Positions 7,183 through 63,644 of a stretch of DNA of 64,000 nucleotides are shown here, piece after piece. A program made the translations under genes and the position numbers. The notes under the pieces are model-generated. The model was given only the letters and a program-made list of their open reading frames with translations, made no database searches and had not been told where the DNA came from. The stretch is from contig CAVYTM010000003.1 in assembly GCA_963771555.1 (NCBI GenBank), positions 500,610-564,609 on the forward strand. The letters run 5' to 3'. The number at the start of each line of letters is the position of its first letter. Position 1 is the first letter of the stretch. This DNA is from an uncultured Thermoplasmata archaeon. Its GTDB lineage: Archaea > Thermoplasmatota > Thermoplasmata > Lutacidiplasmatales > UBA184.

Positions 7183-7673
7183 TCAGCCCCAGGCCTCCTT
7201 GGGGTGGTCGTACAACGCAATCATGTTCCCATCCGGGTCGGAAATGTACGAGACCCGAAATGCGATTCGATTTCCGGAAGATTCCGTCCAAACATGTTGC
7301 TGAATGGTCGTGGCCGAATCGGGGTCCGACTTCAGTTCTTCAACGGCGGTTGCGCTGGCCCAGAGCGTCTTCGTTACCGGCATGATCCCCCGCTCATTCG
7401 ACCGTTCGAGCATCTCCGGCAGGTTCCGGGCCCGTACCTCGATATGGTCAAGGTCTTCTCCAGGAACGTAGCTAGTCCAGAACGGCTCGACTCTGCGTAC
7501 CAGTTCAGCTCGATTCGTTGACCCGAGCGACGGTCGTGGAATAGGGCGTACGCCGCCTCTGAATCCGCCACTCACTTGAGCTCCTCGAGGTCCAGCAGCC
7601 GGGTATAGAACTCGATGGATTTGTCGAAATTCGTGCCCCGCAAGCCGAAGTCGCCAAGCCACGCGTCGGACAT
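7183..7673 (-). pseudogene. VOC/glyoxalase family pseudogene
   Basis: Reconstructed MSDAWLGDFGLR..SIEFYTRLLDLEELK*VADS..RIELNWY..LDHIEVR..YISDPDGNMIALY; in-frame TGA at 7572-7574 plus a frameshift at about 7484. Confidence 0.75.
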
Positions 7674-7719
7674 GAAGCGTTACCTCACCGCTCGGCTAGG
7701 GAGGTGTGATCCGGCAAAG

Positions 7720-7800
7720 AACCCCTTACGTGGGGCCGGGGCACACGCGCACGTTGACCCCGAGCCGCGGGAGGGCTTGAGCGAAAGTTTCAGTCCCAAC
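7720..7800 (+). repeat. att-like site A: left arm + 13-bp tRNA-Thr 3' core + right arm
   Basis: agccgcgggaggg at 7763-7775 is 13/13 identical to 9267-9279; right arm cttgagcgaaagtttcagtcccaac is 24/25 identical to 60314-60338. Confidence 0.85.
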
Positions 7801-7886
7801 ACCCCTCCAGCGAATTTTCCCACTGCGTGAGGGCGTCGGCGGAGTTCAATACCCTCCCGCTGCGGAGGTAGCCTGGCGGTCGGGGC

Positions 7887-8633
7887 ATGGGAGAGTATCT
7901 CGACGTCAACGGCGTCAGGACCTACTTCGAAACTCGGGGGAAAGGTGAACCAGTCCTCCTTCTCCACGGTGGGGGTGGCACTGTCGAGTCACTTTACGCG
8001 CAGGCTGACGAGCTGTCCAAGTTCTACTCCGTAGTGCTGCCGGAGAGACGATGGCACGGACGGTCCGCGTGCGTAGGAACCGAGCTGACGTACGAAATCA
8101 TGACGGCAGACACGATCGCTCTCTTGGACGCGCTGAAAGCACGGAAGGCGCATCTGATTGGCCACAGCGATGGGGCCAACGTCGCAGCGATGATCGCGCT
8201 AAAGCGTCCGGAACTCGTGCGGAAACTGGTGATGATCAGTGGCAACTTCAACTCTGACTACATGTCCGCCGAAGGCAGAGCTTCGCTCGGTCGGCTGACG
8301 GTGATTGGCCTGCGCGAAATATTCCCTGCTGTGGTCGACATGTATTACAAGGTCGTTCCGAACGCCGATGAACGATTCCCGATCTTGCTGGAAATGTTGA
8401 AGAAACTTTGGACCTCCGATTGGAGAATATCTTCTGAGGATTTAGGTCGAATCGGCGCTCGCACGCTGGTCATGTCGGCGGATCGGGATATGATTCCGCT
8501 GGCTCACACCCTTGAACTGTTCCGGTCCATCCCCCCAGCTCAGCTCTGTGTGATTCCGAATGCGAATCACCTCCTGGTGATGGAAAGTCCCGAAGCGGTG
8601 AACAGGGCGATCCTCTGCTTCCTCGAACCGTGA
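7887..8633 (+). CDS. Alpha/beta hydrolase
   Basis: LLLHGGGG, GHSDGA nucleophile elbow, C-terminal H (ANHLL). Confidence 0.9.
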   Translation: MGEYLDVNGVRTYFETRGKGEPVLLLHGGGGTVESLYAQADELSKFYSVVLPERRWHGRSACVGTELTYEIMTADTIALLDALKARKAHLIGHSDGANVAAMIALKRPELVRKLVMISGNFNSDYMSAEGRASLGRLTVIGLREIFPAVVDMYYKVVPNADERFPILLEMLKKLWTSDWRISSEDLGRIGARTLVMSADRDMIPLAHTLELFRSIPPAQLCVIPNANHLLVMESPEAVNRAILCFLEP

Positions 8634-8689
8634 ACTCCCCCGATGGGAGTCGGTGGGATGGCCAACCCTCCCTGTGCGAAAGTACCGGG

Positions 8690-8746
8690 CGGATGCCCTC
8701 GTGGACACGGAGCCGCGGGAGGACTTTAGCGATAGTTCGAAGCCCT
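8690..8746 (+). repeat. att-like site A2 (degenerate copy)
   Basis: gagccgcgggaggactttagcgatagttcgaagccc: core 12/13 to tRNA-Thr and 30/36 to site C at 62441. Confidence 0.75.
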
Positions 8747-8823
8747 TTCAAAAGGATGGGATTCCTCGGCGGGCGGCTACCGATCGGCATAGCCGACGAC
8801 TTGTTAGGCAACCCACGGGATTC

Positions 8824-9162
8824 TCATCGCTCGACCGGCTTGGACGAACCCAGGGAGCGCTCTGGAGCCGCTCCCGGTTTCGCCGTGGACTTCAGGACGT
8901 AATCGAAGAATCGGTAGACCTGTCCATCCTCGGCGGTCCATTCGGCGCGGAGGCGCGTCCTCTTCTCGACCTTCCGGAGAGCGGACAGGACCGAGCGGTT
9001 GAGGTCCTTCGCGCTGCCCCCTTCCATCGCAGCCTCGACCACGAACTCCGTTCCCTGCTCTCGGATCTGGCCGCCGGGGAACACTTCTCCGAGGATCGGT
9101 CGTATCCGCTCGAGGCTATCCGTGCTCACTCGGGCTACGAGTCGGAATCGACTTGCGGTCAC
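8824..9162 (-). CDS. Hypothetical protein (112 aa)
   Basis: Clean ORF with protein-like composition; TATA-like ttaaat about 30 bp upstream. Confidence 0.65.
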   Translation of the reverse strand: MTASRFRLVARVSTDSLERIRPILGEVFPGGQIREQGTEFVVEAAMEGGSAKDLNRSVLSALRKVEKRTRLRAEWTAEDGQVYRFFDYVLKSTAKPGAAPERSLGSSKPVER

Positions 9163-9266
9163 CGAGCCACCTCAGTTAGACCGGCCCCCGCGATTTAAGG
9201 AGCCCCGGGTCATGAGAGTGAAGCACCCATTGCCAAAGGGCCGGGCGCACGCCCGAGGTGACCGCC

Positions 9267-9340
9267 AGCCGCGGGAGGGATTTGAACCCTCGGCCTGCTC
9301 CTTACCAAGGAGCCGCTCTGCCAACCTGAGCCACCGCGGC
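9267..9340 (-). tRNA. tRNA-Thr(GGT)
   Basis: Cloverleaf: GCCGCGG/CCGCGGC acceptor, GCTCC-TTGGTAA-GGAGC anticodon arm, GAGGG-TTCAAAT-CCCTC T arm; CCA not encoded. Confidence 0.95.
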
Positions 9341-59973: not shown

Positions 59974-60195
59974 ATGAAGGAATACAAGATTCTGAAAGAG
60001 ATCGAGAACGCGAGAATGGGACCGAACAATCACCGGCTCCTCGAGAACCAGATCAACGAACTCGCCCGGGAGGGATGGGTGGTCAGTTCGTTCGGAGTAA
60101 GCCATTCCACGACCGCCACGGGGCTGCTGGTCACGACGAACGCGTGGTTCTGTGCCCTGCTGGAACGGGAAACACAGAGCGGCCGTTCCCGATAG
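59974..60195 (+). CDS. DUF4177-like small protein
   Basis: MKEYK..., LE..IN.LA.EGW.V, ..LLERE; SD ggaggtgg upstream. Confidence 0.7.
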   Translation: MKEYKILKEIENARMGPNNHRLLENQINELAREGWVVSSFGVSHSTTATGLLVTTNAWFCALLERETQSGRSR

Positions 60196-60290
60196 GAAGC
60201 CGGACCCGCGGGGTTAGCTCACGGAAAGCCTGGAAGGCGCGACTTGCGGGATCATCCAGCGGCCACAGCGCCCCGGCCACGACATCCCGG

Positions 60291-60338
60291 AGGAATTGCG
60301 GGCCGAAGGAGGGCTTGAGCGAAAGTTTCACTCCCAAC
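60291..60338 (+). repeat. att-like site B
   Basis: ggccgaaggaggg is 11/13 to the tRNA-Cys 3' end; right arm is 24/25 to site A; left flank ggaggaattgc resembles ggaggaactcc next to tRNA-Cys. Confidence 0.85.
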
Positions 60339-60446
60339 CTCTCGAAAACCCAACGAGTGCTTTTCGAGGACCTGCCTGTTTCAAACCTTCTAAGGGAACG
60401 GTCCGGGTGGGGTGCGGCTTAATCTAACCGAGACCAGTTTCGGGTC

Positions 60447-62435
60447 GTGGCCTCTACTCGAAGACTCGCCGCCATCATGTTCACCGACATGGTGGGCTCC
60501 ACCGCCTCGGCTCAAGCGAATGAGTCGCAAGCCCTCAAGCTCCGGGACGAGCAGTCGGAGTTGGTTCGTCCCCTCTTCCCCACGCACCATGGACGCGAGA
60601 TCAAGTCGATGGGGGATGGGTTCCTCACCGAGTTTGACAGCGCGCTTCATGCGGTCCAGTGCGCGATCGATATCCAGCAACATCTTCACGAGCGGAATTC
60701 ACAACCTGGCGTGGTACCCATCCAGCTTCGCATTGGGATCCACTTGGGGGACGTCGAACAGCGTCAGACCGACATCTTTGGCGACTCAGTGAACATCGCC
60801 GCACGGATCGAACCGCTCTCTTCGCCGGGCGGAATCTGCATTTCCGGTGAGGTGTTCAGTCAGGTTCGAAACAAGATTCCGAATCCGTTCGAAAAGCTTC
60901 CGCCGGCGACCCTGAAGGGGTTGCAAGGGCCGATCGACATCTACCGTGTTCTGCTACCATGGACCGTTCGCGAGCAGCCCTCCCGCGGCAACGGACCGAT
61001 CCGTCTCGCCGTGCTGCCCTTCACTAACATGAGCACGGACCCAGCCGATCTCTACTTCGCCGACGGCCTGACAGAGGAGCTGATCACCGTCCTATCTCAG
61101 CTCCGGGAACTTCGGGTCATCGCCCGCACGTCGGTGATGCCGTACAAGTCGAGCTCCAAAGGGGTGTCCCAGATAGGGGAAGAGCTCCGTGTTTCGTCGA
61201 TCCTCGAAGGAAGCGTCCGAAAGGCGGGAAACCGGCTTCGGGTGACCGCACAGTTGATCGACGTCGAGTCCGAGGACCACGTCTGGGCCAAATCGTATGA
61301 CCGACAGATCGACGATGTCTTCGCAGTCCAGGCGGAACTCGCCAAAGAGGTGGCGGATGCGTTGAAGATCGAACTACGACCGACCGAAACGGCGCGCCTG
61401 GAAGCCAGGCCCTCCGTGCGACCCGAATCTTATCTTGCGTATCTCAAGGGACGATCCGCCCTTCAATCCGTATGGAACGAAGAGGTCTTTCGGGGAGCGA
61501 AGCACCAATTCGAGCTCGCGCTATCCATCGATCCCGAGAACGCACGGGCTCATTCCGGGTTGGCGGATGCTACTATCCAACTCTGGTGGCACTACCGCGG
61601 TCGATCGGAGGGCGAGCGGGACCCGGCCATTCGAGAACATATCGAGCGTGCGCTGGAGGTGGACCCTGACCTGGCGGAGGCTCACTGCTCGCTCGCCCTC
61701 ATTCTGTGGGACGATTCGGACCACCGGCGGGCGGTTGAGGAGCTCCAGCTGGCCTTGTCCCTGAATCCGAGTTACGCGTACGCTCATTGGAGTTACGGGC
61801 ACCTTTTGTGGGTGTTTGACCGAGCCGAGGATGCCCTCGTAGAGTTCGAGCTCGCAGAGGAGCTCGACCCGAAATCGATGCAATTTCTGGTTTCGAGCGT
61901 AATGTTGCTGATTCAGCTTCGAAGACTCGATACGGCGAAGACCAAGTTGGAGAGACTCAGAGAGTTGGACCGAGACGGACCCACCCACCAAAGTTACCTC
62001 ACTTCCTATCAGTACGCTCGGTCGGACTTTGAGGGGGCTTTGCGGACCGCCGACCGATGGGACGAGCTCAATCCCGGAGCGTCCTGGCTTCGTCGCGTCC
62101 TAATCTACTCGGCGACGGGGAGGATCGAGGAGGCTCGGAAAGTGATCAAGCAACAGGAATCGAAGGCGGAAAAGCCGAGTCTCGAGGAGCTCGCCCGGTC
62201 GCATGCATTCGTTGGCGATCTCGATAGTTGCTTTCAGTACATGGACAGCGCACTCGAGGGCCACCAGCTGTCCATCCAATCCTGGCGTACCGATCCGGCG
62301 CTCGGACCGGTTCGCGCGGATCCCCGGTTCGGCCAGATCCTGAAGAAGTTGAACCTTGCCTATCCCTTGGCAACTGGGTCCCTTCGGGTCAGAGATCGCA
62401 CCCTTTGCTTGGAGCCCGCGCGCGGGCCCATGTAG
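60447..62435 (+). CDS. Class III adenylate/guanylate cyclase with TolB-like and TPR domains
   Basis: FTDMVGST, KSMGDGF, RIGIH.GDV, FGD.VN.AAR.E; LAVLPF.N, FADGLTEELI; TPR repeats. Confidence 0.9.
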   Translation: MASTRRLAAIMFTDMVGSTASAQANESQALKLRDEQSELVRPLFPTHHGREIKSMGDGFLTEFDSALHAVQCAIDIQQHLHERNSQPGVVPIQLRIGIHLGDVEQRQTDIFGDSVNIAARIEPLSSPGGICISGEVFSQVRNKIPNPFEKLPPATLKGLQGPIDIYRVLLPWTVREQPSRGNGPIRLAVLPFTNMSTDPADLYFADGLTEELITVLSQLRELRVIARTSVMPYKSSSKGVSQIGEELRVSSILEGSVRKAGNRLRVTAQLIDVESEDHVWAKSYDRQIDDVFAVQAELAKEVADALKIELRPTETARLEARPSVRPESYLAYLKGRSALQSVWNEEVFRGAKHQFELALSIDPENARAHSGLADATIQLWWHYRGRSEGERDPAIREHIERALEVDPDLAEAHCSLALILWDDSDHRRAVEELQLALSLNPSYAYAHWSYGHLLWVFDRAEDALVEFELAEELDPKSMQFLVSSVMLLIQLRRLDTAKTKLERLRELDRDGPTHQSYLTSYQYARSDFEGALRTADRWDELNPGASWLRRVLIYSATGRIEEARKVIKQQESKAEKPSLEELARSHAFVGDLDSCFQYMDSALEGHQLSIQSWRTDPALGPVRADPRFGQILKKLNLAYPLATGSLRVRDRTLCLEPARGPM

Positions 62436-62477
62436 ACCCTGAGCCGAGGGAGGGCTTGAGCGAGAGTTCGATTCCCT
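62399..62477 (+). repeat. att-like site C
   Basis: agccgagggaggg at 62442-62454 is 13/13 to the tRNA-Cys 3' end; both arms homologous to site A. Confidence 0.85.
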
Positions 62478-62572
62478 ACGCCCCAACCCGACCTGTCGGG
62501 GGGAGGGCAATTGTCGCTCGGAGCCCCTCGCCGCCGAATCCTTAACCGAAGCGCGAATCGTTCGACATTTGG

Positions 62573-63514
62573 GTGGGGGCTCACATGGGTGCCGGTCTAG
62601 AGGCGGCGAGCCCCAGCCGCTCCGTCTCCCGGGCGAGCCGATCTTTGCAACTCCTTTCGTTAGCCGCCGGCGCTCTCGCGATTTCGGGCGTCGGTGGCTA
62701 TTGGATCGCGGCCTCGGTCCAGTGTGGAATGTCTTCCACCCCGTTCCGACCGGCGGTTTGCCCACTGTCGAGCGAGCCTGTCGTGGAGATACTTGCTCTT
62801 CTCACGCTCGGCATGACCCTGGTCGCCGTCCCCGCTGTTTTGGGGGGCTTTGAGCGGGTGCTTTCCGTGGGCGCGGCCATCCTCTTCGTTGGAGTCTTTC
62901 AGTTCCCGGCGGGCGGCCTTTTCCCGACGTTGTTGCCCGACGCGCCGCTGTTCGATCCGCGCTTTCCCCCGTCGCTGTTCCTTCTCGTGTCGGGGTTCAT
63001 AGGATTCGCGGCGTCGGCCTGGGGTCGGAGCCGGTCCCCGACCGGGAACGGACCGTTCAATCGGCTCGCGACGGGGGCTGTCATGGTCGGCCTGACTGGA
63101 TGGGCCATGTTTTGGTTCCCCCCGTTTCTTGGAGGACCTGTCGACTCGGGCTGCCCGGTCTCGTTCGGGGGAGCATTACCCTGCACGGCACCCGCGTACT
63201 CTACGCTCACCCCGGTGCTGCCGGAATGGGCTTCGGCAACCTTGATCGCCTTCGCACTCGTGCTCGCGGTTCCGATGGTTTACCGCGCCCTAACACCGGT
63301 GAGCTTGGGCGCAGCTCTTTCAATCCTGGTCACCACCGACTACGTGTTCTGGATGTTCGGTTCCGATGATTGGGGGGCCGTCGGGGCCGCCATGTTCTGG
63401 TTGGCGGTGGGAGCGTCGATCGCGATCGCCGGCCTCTTCCAGAGCTTCTGGACGATGTATGTAACGCCCCGTTACGGGTCTTGGTGGTCGGCGACGCGGG
63501 TCAATCGGACCTAA
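62573..63514 (+). CDS. Hypothetical multi-TM protein with two Cys-loop halves
   Basis: About eight TM helices; two similar modules with paired-Cys extracellular loops (C.......C); TATA-like cttaacc about 30 bp upstream. Confidence 0.65.
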   Translation: MGAHMGAGLEAASPSRSVSRASRSLQLLSLAAGALAISGVGGYWIAASVQCGMSSTPFRPAVCPLSSEPVVEILALLTLGMTLVAVPAVLGGFERVLSVGAAILFVGVFQFPAGGLFPTLLPDAPLFDPRFPPSLFLLVSGFIGFAASAWGRSRSPTGNGPFNRLATGAVMVGLTGWAMFWFPPFLGGPVDSGCPVSFGGALPCTAPAYSTLTPVLPEWASATLIAFALVLAVPMVYRALTPVSLGAALSILVTTDYVFWMFGSDDWGAVGAAMFWLAVGASIAIAGLFQSFWTMYVTPRYGSWWSATRVNRT

Positions 63515-63571
63515 ACCTACCGTGCTTCGACGAGGGCGGCACGGTGCCGCAAGGATTCATGGAGGAACTCC

Positions 63572-63644
63572 AGCCGAGGGAGGGAATCGAACCCCCAGGA
63601 AACAGATCTGCAGTCTGTCGCATTAACCATTCTGCCACCTCGGC
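63572..63644 (-). tRNA. tRNA-Cys(GCA)
   Basis: GCCGAGG/CCTCGGC acceptor, ACAGA-CTGCAGA-TCTGT anticodon arm, GTTCGATTC T loop, T discriminator. Confidence 0.95.

Follow-up and report, generated by a model that had tools for sequence, protein, structure and literature searches.

We analyzed a window of 64,000 nucleotides (C3:500610-564609) from a 1.83-Mb, four-contig metagenome-assembled genome (MAG) of a soil Thermoplasmata archaeon with 66% GC. Within this window, the region 60301-63584 is probably a tandem array, produced by stepwise site-specific insertion of cassettes moved in trans at the 3' end of a tRNA-Cys(GCA) gene, and one instance of a genus-wide system that acts at tRNA-Thr(GGT), tRNA-Thr(TGT), and tRNA-Cys(GCA). 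Each unit has the same anatomy: a cargo gene stands between a right arm (P', ~25 nt) and a left arm (P, ~15-45 nt), and the unit is completed by a copy of the tRNA end 13 nt in length. Across the genus, the arms are conserved independently of the cargo, the cassettes turn over between species, the arrays are free of integrases, and one integrase-bearing island in a relative carries the same arm.

The anchor of the array is the tRNA gene itself, whose 3' end reads AGCCGAGGGAGGG on the plus strand (63572-63584). These 13 nt span the discriminator and the 3' strands of both the acceptor stem and the T-stem, and repeats of them in the same orientation bound each unit, with the intact target tRNA standing at the end of the array. 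The copy at site C, between the two cargo genes, is perfect (13/13), and the copy at site B, the outermost junction, reads GGCCGAAGGAGGG and agrees at 11/13 positions. A preliminary description of this stretch had named the tRNA and both copies, all of which are upheld by ARAGORN, Rfam, and sequence matching. The gene content that it proposed, namely a DUF4177-like gene, a cyclase with TPR domains, and a multi-pass membrane protein, is likewise borne out by open reading frame (ORF) and Pfam analysis. It had also set apart 60314-62454 and 62455-63584, and these do behave as two units that were acquired separately, with att-type copies of the tRNA end as their boundaries.

At both sites, the core is followed by a common right arm of 25 nt, CTTGAGCGA[A/G]AGTT...TCCC.AC, which reads CTTGAGCGAGAGTTCGATTCCCTAC at site C and CTTGAGCGAAAGTTTCACTCCCAAC at site B, the latter being identical at 24/25 positions to the right arm of T1, a site in a second array of the window at tRNA-Thr(GGT). 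The left arms come in two variants, as had been noticed before. The first variant is structured (CACC...GGGCCGGGCG...GCCC...) and is found at site C and at all Thr-locus sites of this genome, that is, at T1, T2, and the flank adjoining tRNA-Thr. At site C, where it overlaps the final codons of the cyclase ORF, it is 73-76% identical to the Thr-locus arms over 62-85 nt. The second variant is purine-rich, corresponding to a T-rich trailer on the sense strand of the tRNA, and is found at site B and in the flank of tRNA-Cys; this flank is of the same type as the tRNA-Cys flanks of four other species (G071, G006, G018, and G024).

Taken as a 12-mer, the core alone has 37 matches at ≤2 mismatches against 30.6 expected, which is not significant. 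Core and right arm together (26 nt, ≤3 mismatches) occur 3 times, compared with 0 in 100 shuffles, and a whole-site profile run against the 1.83-Mb genome returns exactly four internal copies (B, C, T1, and T2; E = 5e-21 to 2e-16), while also picking up the flank adjoining tRNA-Thr. All four lie downstream of two tRNAs and in one orientation. A chance origin of the repeats was therefore rejected: the 12-mer shows no enrichment, yet core plus arm is unique to the Cys and Thr loci. Since core plus arm is absent from the shuffles and only four internal copies exist in the genome, the repeats had been described accurately.

The sister array at tRNA-Thr(GGT) holds two further sites and two cargo genes (Table 1). 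A VOC/glyoxalase-like ORF (7183-7662, minus strand) lies directly left of T1. Because T1 has a full cassette-type left arm, this array may reach further left than its last recognizable site. In this genome, the Thr locus has the core GCCGCGG and the Cys locus has GCCGAGG. The Thr array nevertheless bears right arms of the Cys type, which fits a cross-use of these two tRNAs, the 3' ends of which are distinguished by a single base. When all 28 tRNAs of the genome are considered, 3'-end repeats (14 nt, ≤1 mismatch) occur within 15 kb downstream of five of them, and none occur upstream or on the opposite strand. Besides tRNA-Cys and tRNA-Thr(GGT), three tRNAs of this genome, for Ala, Lys, and Leu, are each followed by one small insert bounded by a copy of the last 13-14 nt of the tRNA.

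Table 1. Features of the tRNA-Cys and tRNA-Thr arrays and related loci (window coordinates, unless a contig is named)
Feature	Position	Strand	Description
tRNA-Cys(GCA)	63572-63644	-	Anchor, attB-type target; ARAGORN; Rfam tRNA, 65.1 bits
Left arm adjoining tRNA-Cys	63558-63571	+	catggaggaactcc; trailer-like; read as P arm of the membrane-protein cassette
Site C	62396-62479	+	Left arm 62396-62441, core 62442-62454, right arm 62455-62479; E = 4.9e-21
Site B	60287-60338	+	attL type; left arm 60287-60300, core 60301-60313, right arm 60314-60338; E = 2.2e-16
Cassette 1 (distal)	60314-62441	+	Right arm and 662-aa class III cyclase with TPR; 2.1 kb; GC 0.597
Adenylate/guanylate cyclase + TPR ORF	60447-62435	+	PF00211 (1.2e-14) and TPR families
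Cassette 2 (tRNA-proximal)	62455-63571	+	Right arm and multi-pass membrane-protein gene; 1.1 kb; GC 0.645
Membrane-protein ORF	62573-63514	+	313 aa, ~7-8 hydrophobic segments
DUF4177-like gene	59974-60195	+	73 aa; Pfam E = 0.0016, below the curated cut-off; flanking DNA
tRNA-Thr(GGT) array	7717-9340	+	tRNA-Thr(GGT) 9267-9340 (-); site T1 core 7763-7775; site T2 core 8711-8723
Thr(GGT) array cargo	7887-8633; 8824-9162	 	Alpha/beta hydrolase (7887-8633); 112-aa ORF (8824-9162, -)
tRNA-Ala(CGC) insert	C1:369480-370235	 	0.67 kb, exact repeat, SRPBCC-like gene
tRNA-Lys(CTT) insert	C3:601559-602680	 	1.03 kb, repeat 12/13, metallo-beta-lactamase-fold gene
tRNA-Leu(GAG) insert	C3:1020502-1021747	 	1.15 kb, exact repeat, alpha/beta hydrolase gene
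Cyclase-TPR paralogues, own genome	C3:255986-257908, 232539-234506, 239672-241618, 744848-746773, 1000941-1002854; C1:31939-35265, 60340-62241, 118362-120277	 	 
G006 island	G006:C2:611818-632110 (L034 + L039)	 	~20 kb at tRNA-Cys; integrase, RelE-type toxin-antitoxin pairs, AAA ATPase, PIN, Fic, quinone-oxidoreductase-like gene

The same arrangement recurs in relatives. Using a site model built from seven sites, together with 20 tRNA-Cys loci fetched from the genus, we found same-orientation arrays in at least seven other species (G006, G009, G018, G024, G033, G063, and G071) and on two metagenome contigs (L107 and L113), with two arrays in G006 and three in G024. They lie at tRNA-Thr(TGT) in G006, G024, and G063; at tRNA-Thr(GGT) in G006, G024, G033, and contig L107; and at tRNA-Cys in G009, G018, G024, G063, and contig L113. 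Pattern scans of metagenomes and genomes returned only more Thermoplasmata arrays and chance matches in unrelated bacteria, and viral contigs yielded neither the site pattern nor a relative of the integrase discussed below. Solitary sites away from any detected tRNA occur twice in G006 and once in G004. The two G006 sites (L016 9838-9885, minus strand, and L017 9609-9692, plus strand) are >10 kb from a detected tRNA, each near a glyoxalase/VOC gene; one of them has a core of the tRNA-Thr(TGT) type, is oriented opposite to the Thr(TGT) array ~15 kb away, and might reflect an inversion.

The preliminary description had anticipated variation at the tRNA-Cys locus, and among relatives this variation is strong. 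The order tRNA-Cys-PHP-MetRS is kept in most of the 20 loci, and almost every species has different DNA beyond the 3' end of the tRNA. In G009, for example, the locus has the same MoxR-DUF4129 flank as in our genome, and 85 bp beyond it lies a site with the core GCCAAGGGAGGG, which matches the tRNA-Cys of that species, and a right arm of the same family. Beyond this site, 2 kb with a HEPN/nucleotidyltransferase pair and a RelE-type pair replace the cyclase and membrane-protein genes. G071 has a toxin-antitoxin insert of 772 bp between copies of a 28-nt repeat, of which 11 nt belong to the trailer and 17 nt to the tRNA, and the G033 assembly breaks at tRNA-Cys.

While the cargo changes, the sites follow their tRNA. 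The core matches the adjacent tRNA in every case compared: it reads GCCAAGG in G009, G018, G024, and G063, whose tRNA-Cys reads likewise, and GCCGCCAGAG at tRNA-Thr(TGT). The arms are conserved across the genus although the cargo is unrelated. Cys-array right arms read ...G[A/G]AAAGT...TCC, right arms of the Thr(GGT) arrays of other species read CTTCGTCGATT.GTT...GCCC, and the structured left arm adjoining tRNA-Thr(TGT) is conserved across three species despite different neighboring cargo. In most copies, the identity to the tRNA ends at the T-stem/T-loop border. The preliminary description had further held that core fidelity falls with distance from the tRNA, as expected if the newest insertion is tRNA-proximal; this holds for the present array and for two G006 arrays, but the Thr locus of our own genome and the G018 and G024 Cys arrays show the reverse trend.

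This tracking of the tRNA also bears on whether the repeat could be a functional RNA or transcription element, i.e., a terminator or processing signal that mimics the tRNA 3' end and was duplicated together with neighboring genes. The right arm of site C does hold a T-loop-like motif (GTTCGATTCCC), long hairpins exist in some copies, and a small GC hairpin in the left arm shows partly compensating variation. However, when 26 sites were folded with DNA parameters and compared with shuffles, the hairpin was not significant overall (mean z = -0.07), with only two sites below -2 (G033, z = -5.5, and G071, z = -3.9). Thus, although several copies resemble an extended T-arm by eye, a conserved right-arm hairpin was rejected. 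We also rejected a split or partial tRNA gene, as the right arm does not pair with the core as a T-arm and ARAGORN and Rfam call nothing there, and a known RNA family, as Rfam detects only the tRNA. Moreover, the sites take their orientation from the tRNA regardless of the cargo genes, for which both strands are used; their core matches the neighboring tRNA; and they occur almost exclusively downstream of three tRNAs. Altogether, we consider an RNA element to be extremely improbable.

We could delimit 24 cassettes in 12 arrays, with sizes of 0.55-3.7 kb, except for one of 6.9 kb, and with 1-5 ORFs each. Recognizable cargo includes hydrolytic enzymes (alpha/beta hydrolases, an amidohydrolase, and a metallo-beta-lactamase-fold protein), transferases (GNAT acetyltransferases, a methyltransferase, and a streptomycin-adenylyltransferase-like protein), GyrI-like and glyoxalase/VOC proteins, RelE-type pairs, HEPN/nucleotidyltransferase pairs, Fic, and one IS66 transposase, and as a whole it looks like integron cargo. 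The IS66-family gene (PF03050, PF13005) lies beside the amidohydrolase gene in a 3.6-kb cassette, the second of the G006 Thr(GGT) array (L081), so that some of the longer cassettes may be enlarged by insertion sequences. Several cargo types occur behind more than one tRNA: homologues of the cyclase-TPR protein (46-63% identity) are found in the Thr(GGT) arrays of G033 and G006 and in the Thr(TGT) array of G006, in both orientations; RelE pairs are common to Cys and Thr(GGT) arrays; and an SRPBCC-like gene stands behind tRNA-Ala(CGC) in our genome and behind tRNA-Cys in G024. In the present array, both cassettes are lower in GC than their surroundings (window mean 0.663, standard deviation 0.031 over 1-kb windows). 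The 313-aa membrane protein has no Pfam family match and one paralogue of 36% identity elsewhere in the genome.

Recombinases were searched for with PF00589, PF00239, and tblastn. Neither PF00589, applied to seven array-bearing genomes with stop codons read through, nor tblastn detected an integrase or integrase fragment inside the arrays. In the Cys array region, there is no match to PF00589 or PF00239, and the Pfam matches of the cargo include no recombinase or transfer functions. Since the cassettes lack a recombinase, they would have to be moved in trans. The genome encodes two tyrosine recombinases, namely an Xer-type gene (C3:573744-574223; L018 17090-18001, minus strand) and a 318-aa integrase at C1:102634-103587.

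The Xer-type gene lies 9.5 kb beyond tRNA-Cys, on the side opposite to the array, and is the sole tyrosine recombinase present in every genome examined. It is conceivable that this host XerA moves the cassettes, in the way that integrative mobile elements exploiting Xer (IMEX elements) use XerCD, and the gene is indeed found 5-10 kb from tRNA-Cys in our genome, in G071, and in G033. This closeness is nevertheless accounted for by the conserved order Xer...MetRS-PHP-tRNA-Cys, within whose MetRS/PHP flank the gene lies, and therefore probably reflects gene order rather than function. It is also absent for the Thr arrays, and the target is a tRNA end and not a dif-like 11-6-11 site. We thus consider a role of XerA highly improbable. 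A serine recombinase of the small resolvase type (C3:1061063-1061698, 211 aa) was rejected as unrelated in position. Its neighborhood (C3:1059082-1064258), near a contig end, contains two DNA methyltransferase-like ORFs and an SppA/ClpP-like gene and may be a separate mobile or defense island.

The second tyrosine recombinase, at C1:102634-103587, leads to the integrase-bearing island mentioned above. In G006, its orthologue (74% identical) lies 1.6 kb from tRNA-Cys within an island of ~20 kb. At the far end of this island, ~20 kb downstream and in the expected orientation, stands a degenerate core, GCTAAGGG, followed by CATTGGCGAAAGGTCCGATTCCCAAC. This distal arm is identical at 24/30 positions to the arms of B, C, and T1 and at 22/29 positions to a G024 Cys arm that was outside the model. 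An exact-repeat search found no partner repeat for the island, and the degenerate site surfaced through the profile. Judging by these sequences, the island looks like an autonomous member of the same site family, and the link that it provides between the integrase and the arrays is suggestive.

About half of the genus has orthologues of this integrase, none of them in a syntenic context and many at the end of a contig. At 12 such loci, att-like sites beside the orthologues were sought and rejected, as only the G063 locus adjoins tRNA-Thr(TGT) and the flanks are not syntenic. At that locus (L090, G063:C4, 625-1600), an integrase gene whose product has 47% identity to the C1 enzyme stops 60 bp upstream of tRNA-Thr(TGT), and a cassette follows downstream of the tRNA. 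This integrase-tRNA-cassette layout is integron-like, and G006 and G024 have unrelated conserved genes in that position. A loose right-arm pattern was uninformative near the C1 integrase, one version giving 0 matches and another 107 noisy ones.

The absence of integrases from the arrays can also be read in another way, namely that full-size, integrase-bearing elements (viruses, plasmids, or islands) integrated successively and were then reduced by deletions to one gene and the att ends, leaving a fixed array of dead remnants. Integrase-bearing elements are well known to line up in tandem at one tRNA (PMC6563490; 10.1101/2020.12.28.424599), the G006 island of ~20 kb has the same right arm and sits at tRNA-Cys, some cores are decayed (e.g., site B, with its two mismatches, and the distal sites of the G006 Thr(TGT) array), and conspecific assemblies show no polymorphism. 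Yet, this scenario requires that 24/24 cassettes in 12 arrays shed their integrase cleanly while keeping both arms. Against it also stand the lack of any detectable integrase fragment even with stop codons read through, the conservation of the arms between species with different cargo, and the clustering of unit sizes at 0.5-3.7 kb. We regard reduction to dead remnants as unlikely.

Several findings weigh against an array of cassettes moved in trans by an integrase of the C1 type. The predicted variation does not extend to conspecific assemblies: the array of the window recurs unchanged in an ENA assembly, in GCA_049585555.1, and in Logan contigs of several other runs, and neither the two conspecific assemblies nor the Logan contigs showed an excised circle, an empty site, or strain polymorphism. 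The link to the integrase stands on a single island in a single relative, whose distal site was initially detected at a mere E = 0.2 in the profile search; several array-bearing genomes have no close orthologue of the integrase, and elsewhere the orthologues do not adjoin these sites. The genome is 83.6% complete. Cassette genes lie on both strands, within and between arrays. Finally, the recurrence of cyclase-TPR genes in arrays is weaker evidence than it appears, because this family has at least nine paralogues (39-68% identity) in our genome. One of these paralogues ends 75 bp from tRNA-Val(TAC), where a distal repeat was sought and not found.

Logan contigs from several runs stop at the same points, window 60465-60492 (the N-terminal cyclase motif) and 63572-63621 (tRNA-Cys). 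Cassette polymorphism is probably not the cause of the ends at 60492 and inside the tRNA, which are best explained by sequence common to cyclase paralogues and to the tRNA-Cys of other species.

Under the proposed stepwise insertion, a circular cassette with a P arm, core, and P' arm would recombine with the tRNA 3' end to give the order trailer-core-P' ... P-core-tRNA. The insertion would restore the tRNA using the 13 nt carried by the cassette, and older material, together with the original tRNA trailer, would be displaced outwards. A second insertion at the rebuilt tRNA would then create an internal P-core-P' site. In these terms, the core of site B would stand between the original trailer and the P' arm brought in by the cyclase cassette, and the core of site C between the P arm of that cassette and the P' arm of the membrane-protein cassette; at the tRNA junction, the core would join the membrane-protein cassette, through its P arm, to the tRNA body. 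Because site B is of the trailer type, site C is a full P-core-P' site, and the tRNA flank is a P arm, we infer that the cyclase cassette was inserted first and the membrane-protein cassette second. The point of exchange may lie either within the 13 nt or at the T-stem/T-loop border. The mover would most likely be a tyrosine integrase of the C1:102634-103587 family, and the system may still be active.

A more ambitious version of this model is an integron-like capture system of the whole genus, which lives in soil and peat, in which tRNA-Thr(GGT), tRNA-Thr(TGT), and tRNA-Cys (perhaps also tRNA-Ala, tRNA-Lys, and tRNA-Leu) serve as landing sites, a two-part arm that includes the T-loop-like motif acts in the manner of attC, and one stand-alone tyrosine integrase, encoded by the genome or by a mobile element, serves all arrays in trans. 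We put this version forward tentatively, as a possibility with somewhat less than even prospects.

At the outer end of the Cys array, the preliminary description had counted the DUF4177-like gene as a further segment. It cannot count as such, because no site was found on its far side even when up to 3 mismatches were allowed. The orthologous flank in G009 lacks the gene, and G065 has a 70% identical homologue at a distance of 5.7 kb from its tRNA-Cys. The gene may represent plain flank or an old cassette that has eroded. DUF4129- and MoxR-type genes follow further to the left, and a PHP-domain gene and MetRS lie to the right of tRNA-Cys. On the whole, the preliminary description was largely correct.

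If the cassettes are moved in trans, the system would offer small-genome archaea a compact route for swapping single accessory genes without a recombinase in each element, a type of exchange hitherto credited mainly to integrons. The cargo available for such exchange in the arrays includes detoxifying enzymes, signaling proteins, and toxin-antitoxin pairs. The model, if true, would also account for the fact that gene order and assembly in these MAGs break mainly at tRNA flanks. Since the core is short, the arms are defined, and a candidate integrase is at hand, the idea can be tested directly by a simple recombination assay, and an active pair of site and integrase could yield a tRNA-targeting integration tool for archaea.

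Repeated integration at one tRNA by tyrosine recombinases is established, and the present arrays resemble classical archaeal tandem integration in that the site is re-used and the tRNA 3' end is duplicated at each junction, whereas the integrase, replication, and virion genes of viruses and plasmids integrated in this way are absent from them (PMC6563490). No integrase-like fragment was found at any junction of our arrays, and the frame across the sites is short and without a family match. In this, they differ from SSV-type integrase elements, whose attP lies inside the int gene and which have int fragments at both junctions after integration.

Tycheposons of Prochlorococcus likewise form stacks at tRNAs, in which the elements are separated by partial tRNA copies (10.1101/2020.12.28.424599). 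They share with our arrays the use of few tRNA targets, the outward displacement of older elements by newcomers, niche-adaptive cargo, and the formation of hypervariable islands. However, they are defined by a recombinase (tyrosine or large serine type) and a replication or packaging module of their own, which are absent from both cassettes here and from the cassettes of relatives, and their integrase-less pieces are described as degenerate remnants, whereas here the integrase-less, arm-bearing cassette is the standard unit.

A further parallel in layout is provided by cis-mobilizable elements (CIMEs) and accretion arrays, such as those of the ICESt1/ICESt3 family and of Dehalococcoides ssrA islands, where integrase-less units are read as cis-mobilizable elements and a conserved motif lies beside the repeat (PMC3146451). 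In both cases, an intact tRNA or tmRNA is followed by tandem units, with direct repeats of its 3' end and an extra motif, insertion occurs at the T-loop/T-stem region, and some units have no integration module and are thought to be mobilized by the recombinase of a neighbor or of another element. In contrast to CIMEs, every unit in every array here is recombinase-less, most units hold one gene and span 0.5-3.7 kb as opposed to 10-30 kb, three different tRNA genes share one site family, the host belongs to the Archaea, and the candidate enzyme is a tyrosine recombinase rather than a CcrB-like serine recombinase.

With integrons, including sedentary chromosomal integrons and clusters of attC sites lacking integron-integrases (CALINs), of which archaeal examples exist (10.1101/2022.02.06.479319), the arrays share mostly single-gene, recombinase-less cassettes, one site per circle, a fixed insertion site, and arms conserved within the lineage. 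The cargo is also alike, with GNATs, glyoxalase/VOC proteins, hydrolases, methyltransferases, an aminoglycoside-adenylyltransferase-like gene, and toxin-antitoxin pairs. Unlike in integrons, no IntI adjoins the array, the nearest tyrosine recombinase being the Xer-type gene beyond the tRNA, and among all arrays only that of G063 has a tyrosine recombinase next to it, the 47% homologue of the C1 integrase; a tRNA 3' end takes the place of attI as landing site; and the sites are not imperfect palindromes of the attC type, as judged from the folding of the 26 sites and not from an attC model. Since the cargo lies in both orientations, a shared Pc promoter logic as in integrons does not apply either. 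Altogether, the arrays are best filed as tandem tRNA-anchored islands with cis-mobilizable elements, integron-like in behavior. What sets them apart from known systems is that all units are recombinase-less and mostly single genes, that the arms are conserved genus-wide irrespective of cargo, and that three tRNAs are used, in an archaeon.

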